DNA of 64,000 nt from Candidatus Marinacidobacterales bacterium. GTDB lineage: Bacteria > Acidobacteriota > Vicinamibacteria > Marinacidobacterales > SMYC01. Both the position numbers and the translations under genes were made by a program. The DNA is taken from contig OZ250169.1 of the NCBI GenBank assembly GCA_965237955.1, positions 2,240,001-2,304,000 on the forward strand, given 5' to 3'. A model generated the notes under the pieces. The model saw only the letters and a list, made by a program, of their open reading frames with translations. It was not told the origin of the DNA and did not search any database. How positions within the stretch are numbered: position 1 is the first letter of the stretch; the number at the start of each line of letters is the position of its first letter. Shown here in pieces: positions 7,115 through 20,551 of this stretch.

Positions 7115-8657
7115 TCAGCGCAACCAAGCTTCGGGGAACTCGGCCGCTTTCGAGCGGCCGCCATGGCGGAGGACGGCGTCGCCGTGCTTCTTCTCGGTAT
7201 ACGGGACCACGTGCGCGCACGCTTGGTTCTCGAGAAGCTCGTACAATCTATGCCGCAAGGACGCCTTGAGATCGGCCAGCTCTGGGTCATCGATCAAGTT
7301 CGTCATTTCACGAGGATCGTTCACCATGTCGTAGAGCTCTTCCGTGTCCCAAACGCCGTGATACTGAATGAGCTTGTAATCCGGCGTACGGATCGCGAAC
7401 GTCGGCGGCGTGTGCGGGAAATCGTATTCCCAGTAGTACTCGTAGAGAAACTCCTCGCGCCCGGTCCCCGTCATCATTTCCCCGGCTGTCGCATTCCCAA
7501 GGGACAGCAAGCTGACACCTTCGAACTGTTCGGGCATGTTCTCGATGCCGGCGAGCTCCAACACCGTCGGTGCGATATCGAGATTGGCCGCCAGCGCTTC
7601 GACGACAGTCCCAGAAGGAAACAAACCGGGGCCGTACGCTAGAAACGGGACCCGCATCGATTCCTCGTACGCGTTGCGCTTGTCGATCAACCCGTGTTCG
7701 CCAAACAGGAACCCGTTGTCTCCCATGAACAGGATCGCCGTCGTCTCCGTCAGCCCGTTCTCCTCCAAAAACACGAGAATACGGCCGAGGCTGTCATCCA
7801 CCGACGTCAGCGTTTGGTAGTAGCGACGCAAGTACTCGCGCACGTCGAGGTCGCTGTGGTAAGGAAAATCAACGCCGTGCCAGCTGTTTCTCTGGTTCTG
7901 TACCCACATGGGTTTTCCCGCGTAGTTTTCTGCGGTGTTCGCGGCACTCGCGGGAAGCTCGATGGCGGCGTCGGCGTAGAGACCGCGATACTCCTCGGCA
8001 GGATAGAAATCCGCGTGCACCGCTTTATGGGAGAGATAGAGAAAAAACGGTTTGCCGTCATCGCGCTCCTCTCGAAGCCAGCTCAGTGCGTAGTCGGTGA
8101 GCTCGTCGGTGATATAGCCTTTCTGAGGGACGTGTTCGCCGTCGACGTTCAAAACGCTTTCCCTGTTCGGATTGTCACCAGGGTAGTAGTCACCCTGCCC
8201 TTGAAAAACTCACCCAGTGGTCGAAGCCGCGCTGCGGGTCGTCGGTTGCCCCGCCCATGTGCCACTTGCCGATGAACGTGGTCTCGTACCCCGCTTCTTG
8301 AAGATACTCGGGGAAGAACGTCAACCCCTCAGTGCTCGCCTCGTTGTTGTCGACGACGCCGTGGTTGTGCATGTACTGACCGGTCAGGATGGTCGCGCGG
8401 CTCGGTGAGCACAGAGCGGTCGTCACGAAAGCGTTTCTGAAGTAGACACCCTCTTCGGCGAGACGATCCATGTTCGGCGTTTCGAGAAGCGGATTGAGAA
8501 ACCCCATGGCGTCGTAGCGCTGATCATCGACGAGGATGAAGATCACGTTACGCTGCTCGCCGCTCGTAGTCGCGGAAGGCTGATTCGCGGTGGCACATCC
8601 GATGATCCATGCGATCGCCGCGGTGCCGCACCAAAGCTTCGACTTCGCTTTTCTCAT
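7115..8657 (-). pseudogene. Formylglycine-type sulfatase (lipoprotein-like signal), frameshift near 8205
   Basis: ILVDDQR, LCSPSRATILTG, GKWH, GDNG..GEHG..DKR.AYEES; break lies in an A5 run. Confidence 0.9.
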
Positions 8658-9062
8658 AGCGCTCTCTATAATCGTAGTGCGCGTTGGAAGCAACCGGCTT
8701 ACCGGCTCCACCACGAACGAGGACGTCATGATGCAATCTTTCGTCGCCACAGTCTTCGTCATCTCGAGCTCGACCGCGGTCTCGCCCGCCGCGAGCCAGT
8801 CGGGCCTCGCCCAAGAGCTCGATGAAGCGAAAGCTCTTTACCAGAGCGCCAACTTCATTCGTGCAATGCAAGCGCTCGGGGCCGTCGTCCGTGTGCTCGA
8901 CGGCCCGAGGTCTCTTCTATATGAGACGGGCGGAATCGCTTCCTTCCAACCGCCAACCTGCCTTCAGCCACATCCAAGGCTGACGGAGGCGTTCGCCCGG
9001 TGTCACGCGGCGGCATTCGATTCTCGGCCGCCAGCAACTTAGAATCCTAGGTTGAGTCTGGC

Positions 9063-11898: not shown

Positions 11899-13223
11899 TC
11901 ACGCGTCAGCAGTCCGGCGCCAAGGCGATCCGACAATCAGCGCGGCTCCGCCGAGCACGACAGCGACGGGGACGATCCGACGCCCGAGCGCTCCTTCCGC
12001 TCCGATACCACCCAACGCCAGCATCACGACCCCGGCGCAAACTCCGACTGCGCCCGCGATGGCGCGCCACGCGGGAACCGAGGCAGCGGCACCCTTTCTC
12101 GCCGTTTGTTCGAAGCGGCCGAAGACGGGGACGAAGATCGCAAGACCCGCCGCGTAGATCGCTATCCACATCGGGCGCGTCGCCCACCAGCTCCACGTTC
12201 CCGGTCGAAGATGGAGGCCCACGTCGCCCAACAGGTGAGCCAAACCGATGACGAGGACCATCACCGTGAGGTGCCACAAGTAGAGCGTCATGATCGTCCC
12301 GTTGACGAGGACGGTCGCTGTCCATGGCCCGAGTCGTTGCAGCCATCGACGAAACGGTTTTTCCAGAGCGAACACCAAACCGCCTTGGAAAATTCCGAGA
12401 GCGAACATCGCGAACGTCGGGGGTCTCGAGTTCGACACCGCTTCGCCGGGGACGGTGATCATGCTGATCGGATAGTCGGCCACGGTGACGAGAAAGATCA
12501 GCGTTCCGAGACCTCCTGTGACCCAAAGCCAGGCGCGCTCGGCGCCGGCGGTTTTTCCAGCGCGCCACAGGTACCCGAGCTGATGCACGCCGAGCCAAAT
12601 GAACGCGTAGTTGATCCAACGAAGTCCGGAGACGTCGGCGCGAAAGGCGATCGTATCGACTATCAAAGCGCCGAACGCGAGCATCCAGAAAGATGCCGCA
12701 CCGAACCGCCGAAAAACCAATGCGTGGCCGGTGCCGTGATCGCTACCATGATGTAGACCGCAAGGAACCAAGTCGGGATGAGCGCCGCTTGCGAGCCGAT
12801 ACGGATCATCTCCGGGTGGACGCCGAGCTGGTGCGCGATCACAGCGATGGCCGACCACGTCAAAAGAAGCGGGACGAGTGGGCCGACCAACCGTCTCAGC
12901 CGCGTGCCGATCCAAACCGCGTAGTCTTTGCCGTCCCGCCGCGCGGCCTCCCAGGAAATGCCGTTCGAGTAACCTCCGACGATGAAGAAGATCGGCATGA
13001 CCTGGAGAACCCACGTGAGCCACTGCGTCCACGGCGCAAGGCTCAACATGTCGCCAAGCTGGAGCTGACCATCGTCGGAGACGTACGCCGCCGCCACCGA
13101 CCAGTGGCCGAGCACGACAATGGTAATGGAAGCGGCGCGTAGAAAATCGACGTAGCGGTTGCGCGTTTCCGGCGTGCGCTCGGCGAGAGTCCTGGCTCGA
13201 GACCACACTGTCGGCTTGGACAT
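11899..13223 (-). pseudogene. Acyltransferase family 3 membrane protein, frameshift near 12715
   Basis: RNRYVDFLRA..VVLGHW, QVMPIFFIVGG, WFLAVY; then HQLGY, SNSRPP, MTLYLWH in a second frame. Confidence 0.85.
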
Positions 13224-13429
13224 GGCGCACCGCCCTCCGCGGCTAAAGAAAGGATTTCAAGAAGAATAGGACACTCGAGACCTCTAGGGCAAGCCGGGCA
13301 ACACCAAAATCAGATAAGCTCGCGACGCAAGAGGTGACGATGCTCCACAATTTTGGCCGCGGCGTGATCGGACTCGTGTTCGGTTTTTTTTCCTGACTCT
13401 CCCGAGCTACGCCGCCCAGAAGGTCATCC

Positions 13430-13969: not shown

Positions 13970-15592
13970 ATGAAGGACACACTAATAATGAAGCTACAAA
14001 ACGGCTGCTGGGCGCTCGGACTTTTGGCGCTCTCGGTATCCGCATCGGCCGCAGAGTCGCTGGACGCCTCTCCGGACGCTCGGCTCGATGAGCTGAAGCG
14101 CGAAGCCTCGGCGGAAGTCGAGAGCATGCGGAAATTTACCCAGGTCGCGGTCGACACGATCTTCAGCTACGGCGAGCTCGGTTTTCAAGAGTTCGAGACG
14201 TCACGCTACCTAACCGGATTACTCGCCGAGAATGGCTTCGACGTAGAAATGGGGATGGCGGGCATGCCCACCGCGTGGATGGCGCGTTGGGGATCGGGAG
14301 AGCCCGTCATCGCGTTCGGGAGCGATATCGACGGCATTCCCAAGTCGTCTCAAAAGCCAGGTGTCGCTTACCACGACCCGATCATCGAGGGTGCGCCCGG
14401 GCACGGTGAGGGACACAACTCAGGCCAGGCGGTCAACGTTACGGCTGCACTCGTTCTGAAGAAGATCATGGAGCGCGAGGGAATTCCGGGAACACTCATT
14501 CTCTGGCCTGGAGTTGCGGAAGAGCAGCTCGGATCGAAAGCGTGGTTCGTGAGGGACGGCTACTTCAAAAACGTCGATGCATGTGTGTTCACGCACGTCG
14601 GCCGCAACTTGGAAACGAGCTGGGGCCAGAAAAGCGGCAACGGGCTCGTGTCGGTGGAATACACGTTCCGGGGCGAGTCGTCCCATTCGGCGGGCGCGCC
14701 GTGGAGCGGTAGGAGCGCTCTCGACGGGGTCGAGCTCATGAACGCCGCCATGAACGCACGTCGTGAGCACTTGCGGCTTTCGCAGCGAACCCACTACGTC
14801 ATTACCAACGGCGGTGACCAGCCGAACGTCGTGCCCTCGGTCGCTTCCGTCTGGTATTACTTCAGAGAGCTCGATCAGCCGAACATCCAGCGCTTGTTCG
14901 AAATCGGCAACCAAGCTGCCAAAGCGGCCGCGATGATGACGGACACGGAAGTGGAGTGGCGCATTCTCGGCACCGCTTACCCGGGCCACTTCAACAAAGC
15001 GATCGCCGAAGCGCTGTACGAGAATATTCAAGTCGTGGGACTTCCACAGTGGAGCGAAGCGGATCAGAGATTGGCGAAAGCGCTTCAAAAAGAGATGGGC
15101 GCCGAGCCCGACGGGCTCGCGACCGAGCTTGCCGAGCTCACCGGGCCTGCTAAGGAGCCTCGGACCGGCGGCGGCTCGGACGATATCGGGGATATTTCTT
15201 GGAACGTGCCCACGGTAACGCTTCGGTTCCCGTCCAACTTCCAGACGGGCGGGGGCGGCCATCACTGGTCGAGCGCGGTCGCGATGGCGACTCCGATCGC
15301 TCACAAGGGCGCGACCGCCGGCGCCAAAGTCATGGCGATGACGGCACTCGACCTGTATCTGAACCCTGCCGTTCTCGAGGAGGCGCGCGCATACTTCCGC
15401 AACGTCCAAACCAAGGATCACGAGTACGCGCCTTTCATCTCCGACGACGATTTGCCGGCGATTCACCTCAACGAGGAGATCATGGCCAGGTATCGCGACG
15501 AAATGAAGATGTACTATTACGATTCCGACAAGTACGATACGTACTTGGAGCAGCTCGGTATCGACTACCCCACGGTTCGAGAAGAAAACTAG
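13970..15592 (+). CDS. M20 family amidohydrolase (AbgB-like) with signal peptide
   Basis: ELGFQEFET, GHGEGHN, VAEE, GESSHSAGAPW.GRSALD, GGSDDIGDISW. Confidence 0.9.
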   Translation: MKDTLIMKLQNGCWALGLLALSVSASAAESLDASPDARLDELKREASAEVESMRKFTQVAVDTIFSYGELGFQEFETSRYLTGLLAENGFDVEMGMAGMPTAWMARWGSGEPVIAFGSDIDGIPKSSQKPGVAYHDPIIEGAPGHGEGHNSGQAVNVTAALVLKKIMEREGIPGTLILWPGVAEEQLGSKAWFVRDGYFKNVDACVFTHVGRNLETSWGQKSGNGLVSVEYTFRGESSHSAGAPWSGRSALDGVELMNAAMNARREHLRLSQRTHYVITNGGDQPNVVPSVASVWYYFRELDQPNIQRLFEIGNQAAKAAAMMTDTEVEWRILGTAYPGHFNKAIAEALYENIQVVGLPQWSEADQRLAKALQKEMGAEPDGLATELAELTGPAKEPRTGGGSDDIGDISWNVPTVTLRFPSNFQTGGGGHHWSSAVAMATPIAHKGATAGAKVMAMTALDLYLNPAVLEEARAYFRNVQTKDHEYAPFISDDDLPAIHLNEEIMARYRDEMKMYYYDSDKYDTYLEQLGIDYPTVREEN

Positions 15593-15641
15593 TGGCGGGA
15601 TCCGCCGCCGGTTGCGTAGTCCTAGACGAAGGAGAGTCACC

Positions 15642-16469
15642 ATGACGGTCGCGCTTCCCAAAGCACCAGCGGTGGATCGCGAGTCGCTTAGAGCCGCAAT
15701 CCGCGAGGAATATCAGGAAGTTGCAAGGGAGCCCGGCAAGGGCTTTCACTTTCATACCGGACGTCGTCTTGCCGCCATTCTCGGCTACGACGAATCGTTG
15801 TTCGCGGGTGTACCGGAGACATCCATCGAGTCGTTCGCGGGAACCGGCAACCCGTTCAGTTTGGGAGCTCTCGATCCAGGAGAAAACGTCGTCGACATCG
15901 GCTGCGGCGCCGGTATCGACAGCCTCATCGCCGCACGCATGGTCGCGCCAAACGGCAAGGTCATCGGGATCGACATGACCCCCGCCATGCTCGACAAGGC
16001 AGAAAACGCTCGGCAAGAGGCAGGCGTAACCAACGCGGAGTTCAAAGAAGGCTACGGCGAGAAGCTCCCCGTGTCCGATGGGTGGGCCGATGTCGTGATC
16101 TCGAACGCTGCTTTCAACCTCATGCCCGACAAGCTGGCGGCGCTGAGAGAAATGTCGCGGGTGTTGAAGCCCGGCGGACGATTGCAGCTCGCCGACATCC
16201 TCGTTGAAAAGCCTGTGAACGAGAAAGCCAAGGAGCGCATCGACCTCTGGACTGGGTGAATCGCCGGCGCTCTGCTGGAAGCAGAGCTCGAGGCGGCGGT
16301 TGGCTCGACGGGTTTCGAGGGTTTCGAGATTACCTGGCGGGAGGAAGTTTTCCGCGACGCACCGCAACAATCGAGCGCGGCGAGCTTCGTTACTCTCGGC
16401 ATCAACTTCCGAGCACGGAAGCCGTCATTAGCTCGGCATCAATCAACGGCGACCCCTGAGTATCTTTAG
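15642..16469 (+). CDS. ArsM-like SAM-dependent methyltransferase, probable selenoprotein (UGA at 16257-16259)
   Basis: VDIGCGAGID, GIDMTPAML, RVLKPGG; frame continues past TGA as LWTG-U-IAGAL...INFRARKP to TAG 16467; SECIS-like hairpin; RBS GAAGGAG. Confidence 0.8.
16260..16298 (+). promoter_or_regulatory. Putative bacterial SECIS element
   Basis: Stem GCTCTGCT (16269-76) / AGCAGAGC (16280-87) with GGA loop, 17 nt between UGA and loop; lower stem CGCCG/CGGCG. Confidence 0.75.
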
Positions 16470-16479
16470 CCCAGCTCGC

Positions 16480-17631
16480 TCAGCCGACGCGGTCGAGGGC
16501 GTCTTCTAGATCGCGCGTCATCACATCGACGTCCTCGAGTCCGACACTCAGTCGAATGATGGTCCGGCCTTCATAGCGGAACGGATGCACGCGGTCGGTG
16601 ATGCGCTCAGCTTTGATAAGGCTTTGAAAGCCTCCCCAGCTCAAGCCGATGGCGAAGACCTGCAGCGGGTCGAGAAACGTCGAGAGCTGCGCGCGCGAGA
16701 GCTCTCTTTCGAGGATGAACCCGAACACACCCGTGGCTCCGGTCATGTCGCGTCGCCACACGTCGTGCTCTGGATCGCTCTCGAGCGCCGGGTGGATCAC
16801 GGTCTCGACCGCAGGATGCTCGTCGAGCCACTTCGCGAGCTCGAGCGCCGATGCCTGGTGCCGAGCCAGACGCAAAGGTAACGATCGAAGTCCTTTCAAG
16901 GCCGAGTAACAGCTCTCGGGCGAAGCGAAATGCTCAGTCGATTCATAGAAGGAGTGGAGCTCTTGGAATCGTTCCTCGTTGGTCGTGATCACTCCCAGCA
17001 GGGTGTCGGAGTGGCCTGCGATATATTTGCTTCCCGAGTGGATCGAAATGTCCACACCGTGCTCGAACGGTTTGAAGTAGATCGGTGTCGCCCAGGTGTT
17101 GTCGAGGACGGTCACGATGTCCTTCGGCCGCACGACGTCGACGACCGCGCGGACGTCTTGGAGCTCGAAAGTATTGGAGCCAGGGGACTCGAGATACACG
17201 AGCTTGGTGTTCCGTTTTATGAAGCGCTCCACATCGGCGCCGATGGTAGGCGGCAAGTACTCGACCTCGACTCGATATTTCGCCAGAACGCGGTCACAAA
17301 AATCGCGAGTCGGACCGTAGACGTTGTCGCTTACCAGGATATGGTCATCGCTTCTCGTGAATGCCATCAAGACCGTCTCGATGGCATCGAAACCCGAGTG
17401 GCACACCCGGCATGCGTAGCCGCCTTCGAGCTCCGCCAACGCCCGTTCGAGCTCGAGCTGTACCGGCGAGCCGAACGTTCCGTAGAGCTTTCCGTGAAAG
17501 GGTTTTTGGTCGGCCTCGATAAACGCCTCGTAGCTCTCGTACAAGACCGTAGACGCTCGATGCACCGGAGGATTGATCGTGTGAAACGGATCCGCCTGGT
17601 GAAACTTCTTGTTCTTTTCGTTCTCTACCAT
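16480..17631 (-). CDS. metC: Cystathionine beta-lyase
   Basis: NPPVHRASTV, ESPGSNTFE, DNTWATP, PLP lysine HSGSKYIAGHSD, IGLSWGG, IRLSVGLED. Confidence 0.88.
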   Translation of the reverse strand: MVENEKNKKFHQADPFHTINPPVHRASTVLYESYEAFIEADQKPFHGKLYGTFGSPVQLELERALAELEGGYACRVCHSGFDAIETVLMAFTRSDDHILVSDNVYGPTRDFCDRVLAKYRVEVEYLPPTIGADVERFIKRNTKLVYLESPGSNTFELQDVRAVVDVVRPKDIVTVLDNTWATPIYFKPFEHGVDISIHSGSKYIAGHSDTLLGVITTNEERFQELHSFYESTEHFASPESCYSALKGLRSLPLRLARHQASALELAKWLDEHPAVETVIHPALESDPEHDVWRRDMTGATGVFGFILERELSRAQLSTFLDPLQVFAIGLSWGGFQSLIKAERITDRVHPFRYEGRTIIRLSVGLEDVDVMTRDLEDALDRVG

Positions 17632-18306: not shown

Positions 18307-18609
18307 CTAGGTTCGATCGCAAGCGACGTAGGCGTCGATGACAGCGCGCTCGCCCGCCTTGCCGGGCATCGAGTTGCCGTGCTCCATGCCGACGATACCT
18401 CGATACCCCTTGGCCTCGTCGTGCATGAACCGGAGCTGGTCGACCCGATCCTCGCCGGCGTGATGCCGGAACATCCCGAAATGCGGAGCGTAGTCGAGGC
18501 CAAACCGCGTGCTTCCAGCAGACTGCGCGCCGCCGCCCCATGGGGGCCACGCCGGAAGCGCCGCCGCCAGGGTCGAGACCCCCGTACCGAGAAATGCTCT
18601 CCGGTGCAC
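18307..18609 (-). pseudogene. Hydroxypyruvate isomerase-like TIM barrel, internally deleted
   Basis: Tat signal + YAPHFGMFRHHAGED...FMHDE fused in frame to C-terminal KGYRGIVGMEHGNS; only 100 aa. Confidence 0.7.
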
Positions 18610-18731
18610 GGGGGCTATTCGTATCAGTCTTCTACACGCCGGTCAACGTCGCTCGGTCTCGTTGTTTTCGACGGTTGCGGATCGGTCAGGCGTCGACGAC
18701 AATGGCGCCGCGCCGCCACAAGGGAGGGGAC

Positions 18732-20551
18732 ATGATGAAGCCGAGACTCTTTGCGCGAGGATGGTTCCTTGGATTGGCCTCGCTGTTGTGGACGGTGACC
18801 AGCACTGAGGCGGCCGCGGCGCTACGACATCCTCTCGATGCGCTCGAGGCCGTCGAATACGAGGCAACCCTCCACATACTGGCGGAGTCTGGTCGCGTTG
18901 GCGAAAAGACTCTTTATCAGCTCATCACGCTCCGTGAGCCGTCGAAGGATTTCGTCAAAACGTGGAAGCCCGGTGAGCCGATACCGCGCTCCGCTTTCGC
19001 CGTCATCAAGGAGGGCCCGCGGACGTTCGAAGCCGTCGTCGATCTCGATGCCAAAAAGCTCAGCGACTGGCGCGAGGTGGAAGGCGTGCAGCCCGGCATT
19101 CTGTTAGACGAGTGGTCTCTGGCGGGGGAGTTGACGGTGAGCGATCCGCGCTGGCAAAAAGCGATGCACAAACGCGGCGTTACGGATTTCGAGCAAGTGT
19201 TTTGCCTGCCGCTCTCCGCGGGTTATTACAACATCCAGGACGAAGAAGGCCGGCGCCTCGTGAAAGTTCCTTGTAACGATCTACGCGGCTCCAAGACCAA
19301 CATCATGGGAAAGCCGATCGGGGGCGTTTTCGCCATCGTCGACCTCAACGCGCGCGAAGTCGTCGACGTCATCGACACCGGTGAGATTCCAATTCCGGAC
19401 GACTCCGCAAACTACGATCGGGATTCGCTCAGGCGAGTTGAAAGAGCCGCTCAAGCCGGTTCAGCACTCGTCGCCTCGAGGCAACAACTTCACCGTCGAT
19501 GGCATGTCCTGGTCGTTTCATTTCCGCATGGACAAGCGAGCCGGTCTCGTGGTCTCGCTCGCCGGCTACGAAGACGACGGAACGACCCGGCCGGTGATGT
19601 ATCAGGGCTACTTGTCCGAGATCTTCGTGCCCTACATGGACCCAGTCGTGGATATGTACTGGCGGACGTTCATGGACGTCGGCGAGTACGGACTCGGGTT
19701 GCTGGCGACGTCGCTCACGAAACAAAGCGATTGCGCGGCGAATGCCGTCTATTTTCCGGCGGTGCTGCAGATGCTTGGCGACGGCAAACCGGTGACGCTC
19801 GACGACGCGATTTGCCTGTTCGAGCGCAACGACGGCAACCCGTCGTGGCGTCACGCCGAGTGGATCAACGAGACGCACGAGAGCCGGCCGAAAGTCGATC
19901 TCGTGCTGCGCATGGCTTCGACGATCGGCAACTACGACTACTTTCTCGATTGGGTGTTCACCCAGGCGGGCGAGATCCGCGTCGCAGTGGGAGCGACCGG
20001 CATCGACCTGGTGAAAGCGGTCGCCTCGAAAACGATGTCTGACGCGACCGCCGCCGCGGACACGCGCTACGGCACCCTGGTCGCGCCGAACGTCGTCGCG
20101 CCCTACCACGATCACTTCTTCAACTTTCGTCTCGACCTGGATGTCGATGGTCCCGCGAACAGCTTCGTCAAGGACGCGGTGGTGCCGAAGGAGCTCGACG
20201 CGGATCATCCGCGGAAGAGTATTTGGGTCATCGACTCGCAAACCGTAAAACGAGAAAAAGCGCGGGGCATTTACCAACTACCACGTCTGGGTCACGCCCT
20301 ACGATGAAGCTCAAAAATTTGCGGGTGGCGATTACGTCAACCAGAGCAAGGGCGATGACGGGCTCGCGGTGTGGACACGTGCCGACCGTTCGGTCGAGAA
20401 CACCGATCTCGTCGTGTGGTACACGCTCGGCATGCGCCACATCACCGCGGCAGAGGACTGGCCGGTGCTGCCGACGAAATGGACCTCGTTCACTCTGAGA
20501 CCGTTCAATTTCTTCAATCGCAGCCCGGTGATCGATCTTCACTCGGAGTAG
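18732..20551 (+). pseudogene. Copper-containing amine oxidase, frameshifts near 19430 and 20265
   Basis: HPLDAL; TPQ consensus IGNYDY; Cu ligands YHDHFF and GMRH..AEDWPV. Confidence 0.9.

Follow-up and report, generated by a model that had tools for sequence, protein, structure and literature searches.

We analysed a window of 64,000 nt (the whole stretch of DNA, positions 2,240,001 to 2,304,000 of contig OZ250169.1 from a Candidatus Marinacidobacterales bacterium), in which positions 15642-16469 of the forward strand form a reading frame whose sole internal stop is the TGA at 16257-16259, followed by 69 codons to a TAG. The table-11 list of open reading frames ends this gene at DLWTG; re-reading the DNA bore out the statement of the initial annotation that the frame stays open for 69 codons beyond that point. 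Translated across the UGA, the product reads ...DLWTG*IAGAL...INFRARKP..., which places residue 206 in the context U-I-A-G. The features of the locus, in window coordinates, are as follows.

13970..15592, forward strand: M20 amidohydrolase (TIGR01891, above cut-off), upstream of the gene with a gap of 49 nt and not seen beside its homologues
15629..15634, forward strand: Shine-Dalgarno-like AAGGAG, 7 nt 5' of the ATG
15642..16469, forward strand: coding sequence, 275 aa with the predicted Sec206; class I SAM methyltransferase, ArsM/AS3MT fold
15744..15761, forward strand: FHFHTG motif, roughly at the site of the ArsM N-terminal Cys and Cys-free here
15840..15854, forward strand: GTGNP motif, with T68 in place of CmArsM Cys72 (Thr in 120/120 top protein homologues)
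15888..15914, forward strand: SAM-binding motif I, VVDIGCGAG, carrying the only Cys, C88
16107..16109, forward strand: A156, in place of CmArsM Cys174 (Gly in 120/120 top protein homologues)
16257..16259, forward strand: in-frame UGA, predicted Sec206, counterpart of CmArsM Cys224
16269..16287, forward strand: predicted bacterial SECIS, 8-bp stem with GGA loop, loop start +17 nt from the UGA (5' arm GCTCTGCT at 16269-16276, loop GGA at 16277-16279, 3' arm AGCAGAGC at 16280-16287)
16429..16477, forward strand: 49-nt stretch without counterpart in related strains, associated with a 13-residue low-confidence tail
16480..17631, reverse strand: cystathionine beta-lyase (metC; TIGR01324, above cut-off), convergent with the gene

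The ATG at 15642 is the start at which the closest homologues begin to align. At the other end, contigs from two of four other runs carry a single A in place of 16429-16477 (joint 16428->16478), and the shorter strain version would stop after RKPS, at a length of 262 aa and close to the metC stop. It appears that the 49-nt stretch eliminated the original stop codon and added a tail of 13 residues, across which the structure model has a pLDDT of 58-65; these last residues look strain-specific. No second copy of the stretch was found in the genome, so that nothing points to a repeat or to the footprint of an IS. Elsewhere in the window, genes at 7115-8762, 11899-13230 and 18540-20551 are split across frames, being either pseudogenes or products of assembly indels; presumably they encode sulfatase-like, acyltransferase-like and copper amine oxidase-like proteins.

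Judged by its pattern of conservation, the hairpin 3' of the UGA behaves as a SECIS element. The 8-bp stem and GGA loop at a distance of 17 nt, as first described, are indeed present, and the copy in the window reaches -24.3 kcal/mol (spacing 17, loop GGA, 8 bp). These values lie within the bSECIS model as we re-implemented it from an excerpt of PMC13188914, section 5 (loop 3-9 nt, stem 4-16 bp, spacing 16-37 nt, G in the first two loop positions, MFE <= -7.5). The fold by itself is modest when compared with shuffled sequences (z -2.29; 6/200 shuffles equally good), and similar hairpins follow 31 of 3020 (1%) long TGA-ended frames of the genome, among them this gene and two other apparent selenoproteins. 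Across homologues, the re-implemented model passes 55/56 TGA loci versus 4/11 Cys forms of the same branch and 4/14 canonical ArsM loci. At least six of the eight stem pairs are kept in 56/56 and 77/77 TGA loci versus 1/14 Cys forms, and two-sided compensatory changes occur at four stem pairs. At the pairing positions, two rare codons, GCT and GCA, are close to fixation: GCT accounts for 46/50 Ala codons at codon +4 (12.5% elsewhere in the same genes) and GCA for 47/50 at codon +8 (11.2% elsewhere). Of the 12 loci closest to the window sequence (among which two pairs are apparently the same genome), 11 have no synonymous difference from it in the 11 codons 3' of the UGA, compared with a pS of 0.48-0.82 elsewhere.

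The genome, which is 97.96% complete, encodes selA, selB and selD above curated cut-offs and carries a tRNA-Sec(UCA) alongside a tRNA-Trp(CCA). Among the best 80 of 499 confirmed GTDB loci, 55 have TGA at the aligned position, with the frame open for 55-81 codons past it, and 25 have Cys; of the latter, 11 belong to the same branch and 14 are canonical three-Cys ArsMs. A set of 80 metagenome loci is composed of 77 TGA and 3 TGC forms. The TGA form is common to many phyla, the nearest named relatives being Acidobacteriota (Vicinamibacteria) MAGs at 78-79% identity, and a close TGA orthologue was found in 13 of 40 related genomes (frameshifted in two of the 13). We found selA in 47/55 genomes with TGA, 1/11 with the branch Cys form and 8/14 with canonical ArsM, counts taken from incomplete MAGs; the association between Sec and selA rests on only three phylogenetically independent pairs (sign test p 0.5). 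As in other bacterial selenoproteins, the UGA is aligned with a Cys of homologues and the sequence is conserved on both sides of it. The initial annotation had proposed looking for homologues with an aligned TGA or Cys, for conservation of the hairpin and for selA, selB, selC and selD: homologues of both kinds exist, the hairpin is conserved among those with TGA, and all four sel genes are in the genome. Taken together, the comparative data make it virtually certain that UGA206 is read as Sec. Two further apparent selenoproteins lie near 6965657 and 6249356 of the genome contig (both on the reverse strand), each with an 8-bp hairpin at +19 nt, and we take them, by their motifs, to be a formate dehydrogenase alpha subunit and a DsbA-like UxxC protein. 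The selD gene (4040942-4043400 of the genome contig, reverse strand) itself uses Cys (CGGCAAK), not Sec, and its product is presumably, again by motif, fused behind an N-terminal pyridine-nucleotide oxidoreductase-like domain.

The suspicion that the TGA is one mutation in a decaying region, raised as a caveat when the gene was first noticed, can be set aside. Measured against the window sequence, pN is 0.10-0.25 after the hairpin versus 0.13-0.24 before the UGA, with pS at about 0.5-0.8; purifying selection 3' of the TGA equals that on the 5' side, and decay into a pseudogene was rejected. This match, together with the frozen synonymous codons of the hairpin, implies that the gene is intact and recoded. 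That the TGA is a genuine stop, whether it terminates a 205-aa protein or arose as a nonsense mutation, or that it is translated under a TGA=Trp code, is extremely improbable: 43 of the top 120 database homologues do end at W-T-G and four are given Trp (all gene-caller outputs), and two relatives carry frameshifts, but selection continues undiminished past a TGA that many phyla have in common, the SECIS is conserved in TGA forms only, tRNA-Trp(CCA) occurs in the genome together with a Sec-type tRNA(UCA), and metC in the window itself terminates at TGA. Contigs from RNA runs match the gene 5' of the UGA at 91-97% identity, the UGA region being found only in contigs of relatives; since contigs cannot show transcription, we do not count them as evidence of expression.

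The structure model of the full-length protein (pLDDT 92.8; folding alignment of 61 rows, with loci L051 and L078 excluded) is predicted to adopt a class I SAM fold nearest to the ArsM structures, with 4fr0, 6cx6 and 5evj as best matches (Z 25.6-26.9; Foldseek E 1.5e-19) and a Z of 26.9 to 6CX6 (rmsd 4.4, 233 aligned residues). In the HMMER alignment to CmArsM and CrArsM, T68 corresponds to Cys72, A156 to Cys174 and residue 206 to Cys224, so the UGA does fall on the catalytic Cys of ArsM, as had been claimed from the sequence. The accompanying claim that the other ArsM cysteines are replaced and the N-terminal Cys missing holds as well, with the correction that one ordinary Cys, C88, remains in the protein; it is often Ser or Ala in homologues. 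The FHFHT motif is kept in most members, though 6 of 66 branch loci have lost both His and another five have lost one, and the equivalent of Cys174 is missing throughout the branch. An ArsM has been defined as retaining at least three of the four conserved Cys (CmArsM 44/72/174/224; PMC5552862), Cys174 and Cys224 both being required; of these, only the 224 position is kept here, as Sec. According to an excerpt of PMC3877260, neither As(III) nor MMA(III) is methylated any longer once CmArsM carries C174A or human AS3MT carries C156S, and a model of AS3MT places As 2.7 A from the sulfur of the Cys224 equivalent and 4.5 A from the SAM methyl. Because only the Cys224 position is retained in the branch, ordinary arsenite methylation is unlikely, TtArsM being a reported exception with one Cys. 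A chemistry unlike that of ArsM, which the initial annotation had put forward, is likely.

The protein scores 213.3 bits against NF008823 (arsM), where the cut-off is 263 (E 4.5e-63), and its top NCBIfam matches all lie below their cut-offs as well: NF041537 (251/510), NF041536 (240/575) and NF047649 (207/460). The second Sec-bearing C-terminal domain or tail that goes with these three families is not present in the protein. It does have the architecture of the NF041537-like group, in which the methyltransferase domain bears Sec at position 224 and is devoid of equivalents of C72 and C174. An unrooted tree of 105 rows resolves canonical ArsM (support 100/99), the NF041537-like group (100/100) and a branch of 75 rows (84/83) to which the protein belongs; Sec and Cys forms are intermixed, with four or more changes between them. 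On this comparative evidence, the protein is part of a branch that is widespread and mis-annotated, falls short of the cysteine criterion for ArsM and is without a model of its own among the NCBIfam matches.

The initial annotation had left it open whether this kind of protein is already catalogued. It is an ArsM-like selenoprotein of a kind known since 2007-08. Excerpts of two reviews (PMC13188914, PMC9312934) list a Sec arsenite methyltransferase (UxxG), citing Fomenko et al. 2007, and eight such sequences appear in the excerpted GOS survey (PMC2398784). As far as these sources describe it, that family (PRK11873/NF008823; example WP_011987699.1) likewise has Sec at the C-terminal catalytic Cys, within UxxG, and a UGA with SECIS; the protein studied here differs in score, with 213 against the cut-off of 263. 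NF041537 (ArsM/AhpD), NF041536 (ArsM/DUF2284) and NF047649 (methyltransferase/UXPK-star) are listed in the excerpt of PMC13188914 with reference to Haft and Tolstoy 2025. Members of NF041537 likewise place Sec at this site and are devoid of C44/C72/C174 equivalents (GVGNP, SNGV), but they possess a second Sec domain and a different Cys two residues earlier (S-[FY]-C-GVGNP), and their group is separate from this branch in the unrooted tree; the comparison rests on two members above cut-off, drawn from 201 genomes of another phylum. Our literature search retrieved no paper on the branch or its substrate and no experiment on any branch member, although Fomenko 2007, Haft and Tolstoy 2025 and BSepDB may cover it. 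Two NF041537-like standalone proteins (loci L187 and L190) have C-x(5)-U-K-P-K at the C-terminus, consistent with double selenoproteins of the UXPK-star type.

CmArsM (4FR0, 6CX6), CrArsM (5EVJ) and human AS3MT (8XT7) share with the protein a common fold (Z 20-27, ~28-31% identity), the SAM motif and the site of the last As-binding Cys, but three of their four catalytic cysteines are gone here. TtArsM of Thermus thermophilus likewise works with one catalytic chalcogen, adjacent His being proposed as ligands in the excerpt of its paper, which also calls it distant from ArsM (25-32% identity); we liken it by description, and in contrast to TtArsM the His pair of this branch is not universal. MddH, MddM1/2 and TMT1A/B also have a class I SAM fold and offer a precedent for S-methylation in sulfur detoxification. 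As excerpted, their descriptions set them apart as UbiE/UbiG-type enzymes (MddM1/2 being ~200-210 aa), do not present them as ArsM-like or as selenoproteins, and ascribe no catalytic Cys to MddH and MddM1/2, which methylate H2S and methanethiol.

The genomic context of the branch points to reactive sulfur. A TusA domain is found in 18 of the top 120 protein homologues; the TusA Cys is invariant in 21/21 aligned fusions, and Sec forms of the fusion exist. Genes for rhodanese, persulfide-dioxygenase-like protein, TusA, DsrE or TauE occur at 20/66 branch loci from four phyla, and the neighbouring rhodanese is often fused to ArsR. With OsmC included, sulfur-gene neighbours are seen at 27/66 loci, leaving 39/66 without any of these. 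About 0.6% of random windows of this genome match the sulfur-neighbour seeds. The counts are inflated, since these very loci supplied the seeds and a TusA fusion was the starting point of the metagenome scan; many loci are, in addition, kin. No sulfur-carrier gene was found beside the gene in the window or in the 1.5-kb flanks of 13 close relatives, although a Cys/Met PLP lyase adjoins it in 3/13 relatives as it does here. The contrast with canonical three-Cys ArsM is weak: of 14 such loci, rhodanese and DsrE flank two (a near-identical pair) and ars genes flank only two. As for the branch, the 353 predicted neighbour ORFs of the 66 loci gave no match to Acr3, ArsC, ArsD, ArsP or ArsH in a search that may miss small genes and scanned long ORFs in part; a CitMHS/ArsB-like transporter (L032) and a pair of ArsA-like ATPases (L052) are doubtful ars matches. 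In one large group of soil metagenome loci (among L128-L176), the C-terminal TusA-like domain has decayed: the proteins end ~96 codons past the Sec and have lost the TusA Cys, the Sec methyltransferase being intact.

We tentatively propose that the protein is an ArsM-fold SAM methyltransferase that methylates sulfur instead of arsenite, a reading that we put somewhat short of an even chance. SelB would bind the GGA hairpin and deliver Sec-tRNA, a step that follows the established bacterial mechanism and is hardly in doubt. The lone selenolate would then stand at the As(III) site of ArsM, beside the SAM methyl. From the TusA fusions, the sulfur-gene neighbours, the missing clear ars context, the loss of the Cys174 equivalent and the separate canonical arsM of 27/50 TGA genomes (with a three-Cys paralogue in this genome too), we infer that Sec206 may capture sulfane sulfur, which TusA, DsrE or rhodanese would supply as persulfide carriers or a lyase would provide as persulfide, to give Enz-Se-S(-); placement and capture are conceivable steps to which we assign the same restrained confidence as to the sulfur reading itself. 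SAM would methylate the Se-bound sulfur, a thiol would free methanethiol or methyl-persulfide, and the outcome would be detoxification of reactive sulfur. Against this mechanism, the nearest solved structures are those of arsenic methylases, TtArsM is reported to methylate arsenite with a single Cys, and the known H2S/methanethiol methylases (MddH, MddM1/2) are of UbiE or UbiG type. The broader notion, that the ArsM scaffold has been repurposed across several phyla as a Se-dependent persulfide methyltransferase fed by TusA/DsrE/rhodanese, is more doubtful still. If true, such an enzyme would constitute an unrecognised route to methanethiol/DMS and would let sulfur leave the relay without a reductant; it would have escaped notice because the database entries end at the UGA.

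Three other substrates have to be weighed. The first reading, rather unlikely in our estimate, is of a selenoenzyme that methylates a metalloid held by one protein ligand, be it an R2As(III) species (e.g. dimethylarsinite, aryl- or alkyl-arsinites) or an Sb, Te or Se species, and that finishes or replaces the last ArsM step. The retained ArsM fold and Cys224 position fit it, as does the binding of DMA(III) by one Cys reported in an excerpt of PMC3877260, and a separate canonical arsM is present in 27/50 TGA genomes; none was found, however, in the other 23/50 (incomplete MAGs). ArsS exceeds its cut-off in only 7/50 of these genomes, on which count a role as partner in an arsenosugar pathway was rejected. 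Although this genome does carry a three-Cys ArsM paralogue beside a radical SAM gene, acr3 was not found in it at 98% completeness, the 66 branch loci are without a clear ars neighbour (the doubtful L032 and L052 apart), and the TusA fusions would be left unexplained.

A methyltransferase for an organic thiol, a selenol or another small toxic molecule is still less probable. Sec would here serve as nucleophile (through a Se-methyl relay) or as redox handle, the neighbours reflecting a shared stress regulon. These include OsmC (11/66 loci), a recurrent MFS transporter (13/66) and a FAD-binding/BBE oxidase that adjoins the gene at six of the 66 (L011, L024, L035, L046, L047 and L067, mostly Desulfobacterota), and the Cys/Met PLP lyases flanking the gene here and in three of 13 relatives would suit it too. 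The invariant fused TusA-type Cys is nevertheless unaccounted for, and we found no substrate clue.

A true arsenite methyltransferase, in which His36/His38 or a dimer partner stand in for the lost cysteines as proposed for TtArsM, is the least credible of the three. TtArsM itself works with one Cys and two His according to the excerpted preprint (bioRxiv 10.1101/2021.07.12.452139), most members keep FHFHT, and many homologues bear the JGI label 'arsenite methyltransferase', an automatic name. Yet the loci in which one or both His are gone led us to reject a general replacement of Cys by His in the branch, CmArsM and AS3MT cannot do without the Cys174 equivalent (excerpt of PMC3877260), the NF008823 score falls short of its cut-off, and ars context is missing.

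The top 120 database homologues comprise 43 that end at W-T-G, 71 full-length proteins with Cys and six with W, Y or R at the site. The Sec call corrects a systematic annotation error by which 43 proteins are cut just before the catalytic residue, and many full-length homologues are labelled 'arsenite methyltransferase' though they are without the cysteines needed for that reaction; surveys of arsenic methylation may miscount such truncated and misnamed sequences. Direct expression is possible for the Cys orthologues, which makes the substrate readily accessible to assay. Sulfane sulfur would mean a chemistry new among selenoenzymes and a further source, likewise new, of volatile methylated sulfur; an arsenical would mean that one Se ligand does the work of several Cys.

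The three-Cys ArsM paralogue of this genome belongs to a cluster (L182:5175-10035; genome contig ~7276-7281 kb) that also holds a metallophosphoesterase-like gene, a flavoprotein and one further ORF next to the radical SAM gene. Where tested, all fall below family cut-offs, the best match being arsinothricin ArsM (212/500), and the cluster possibly encodes an organoarsenical pathway.
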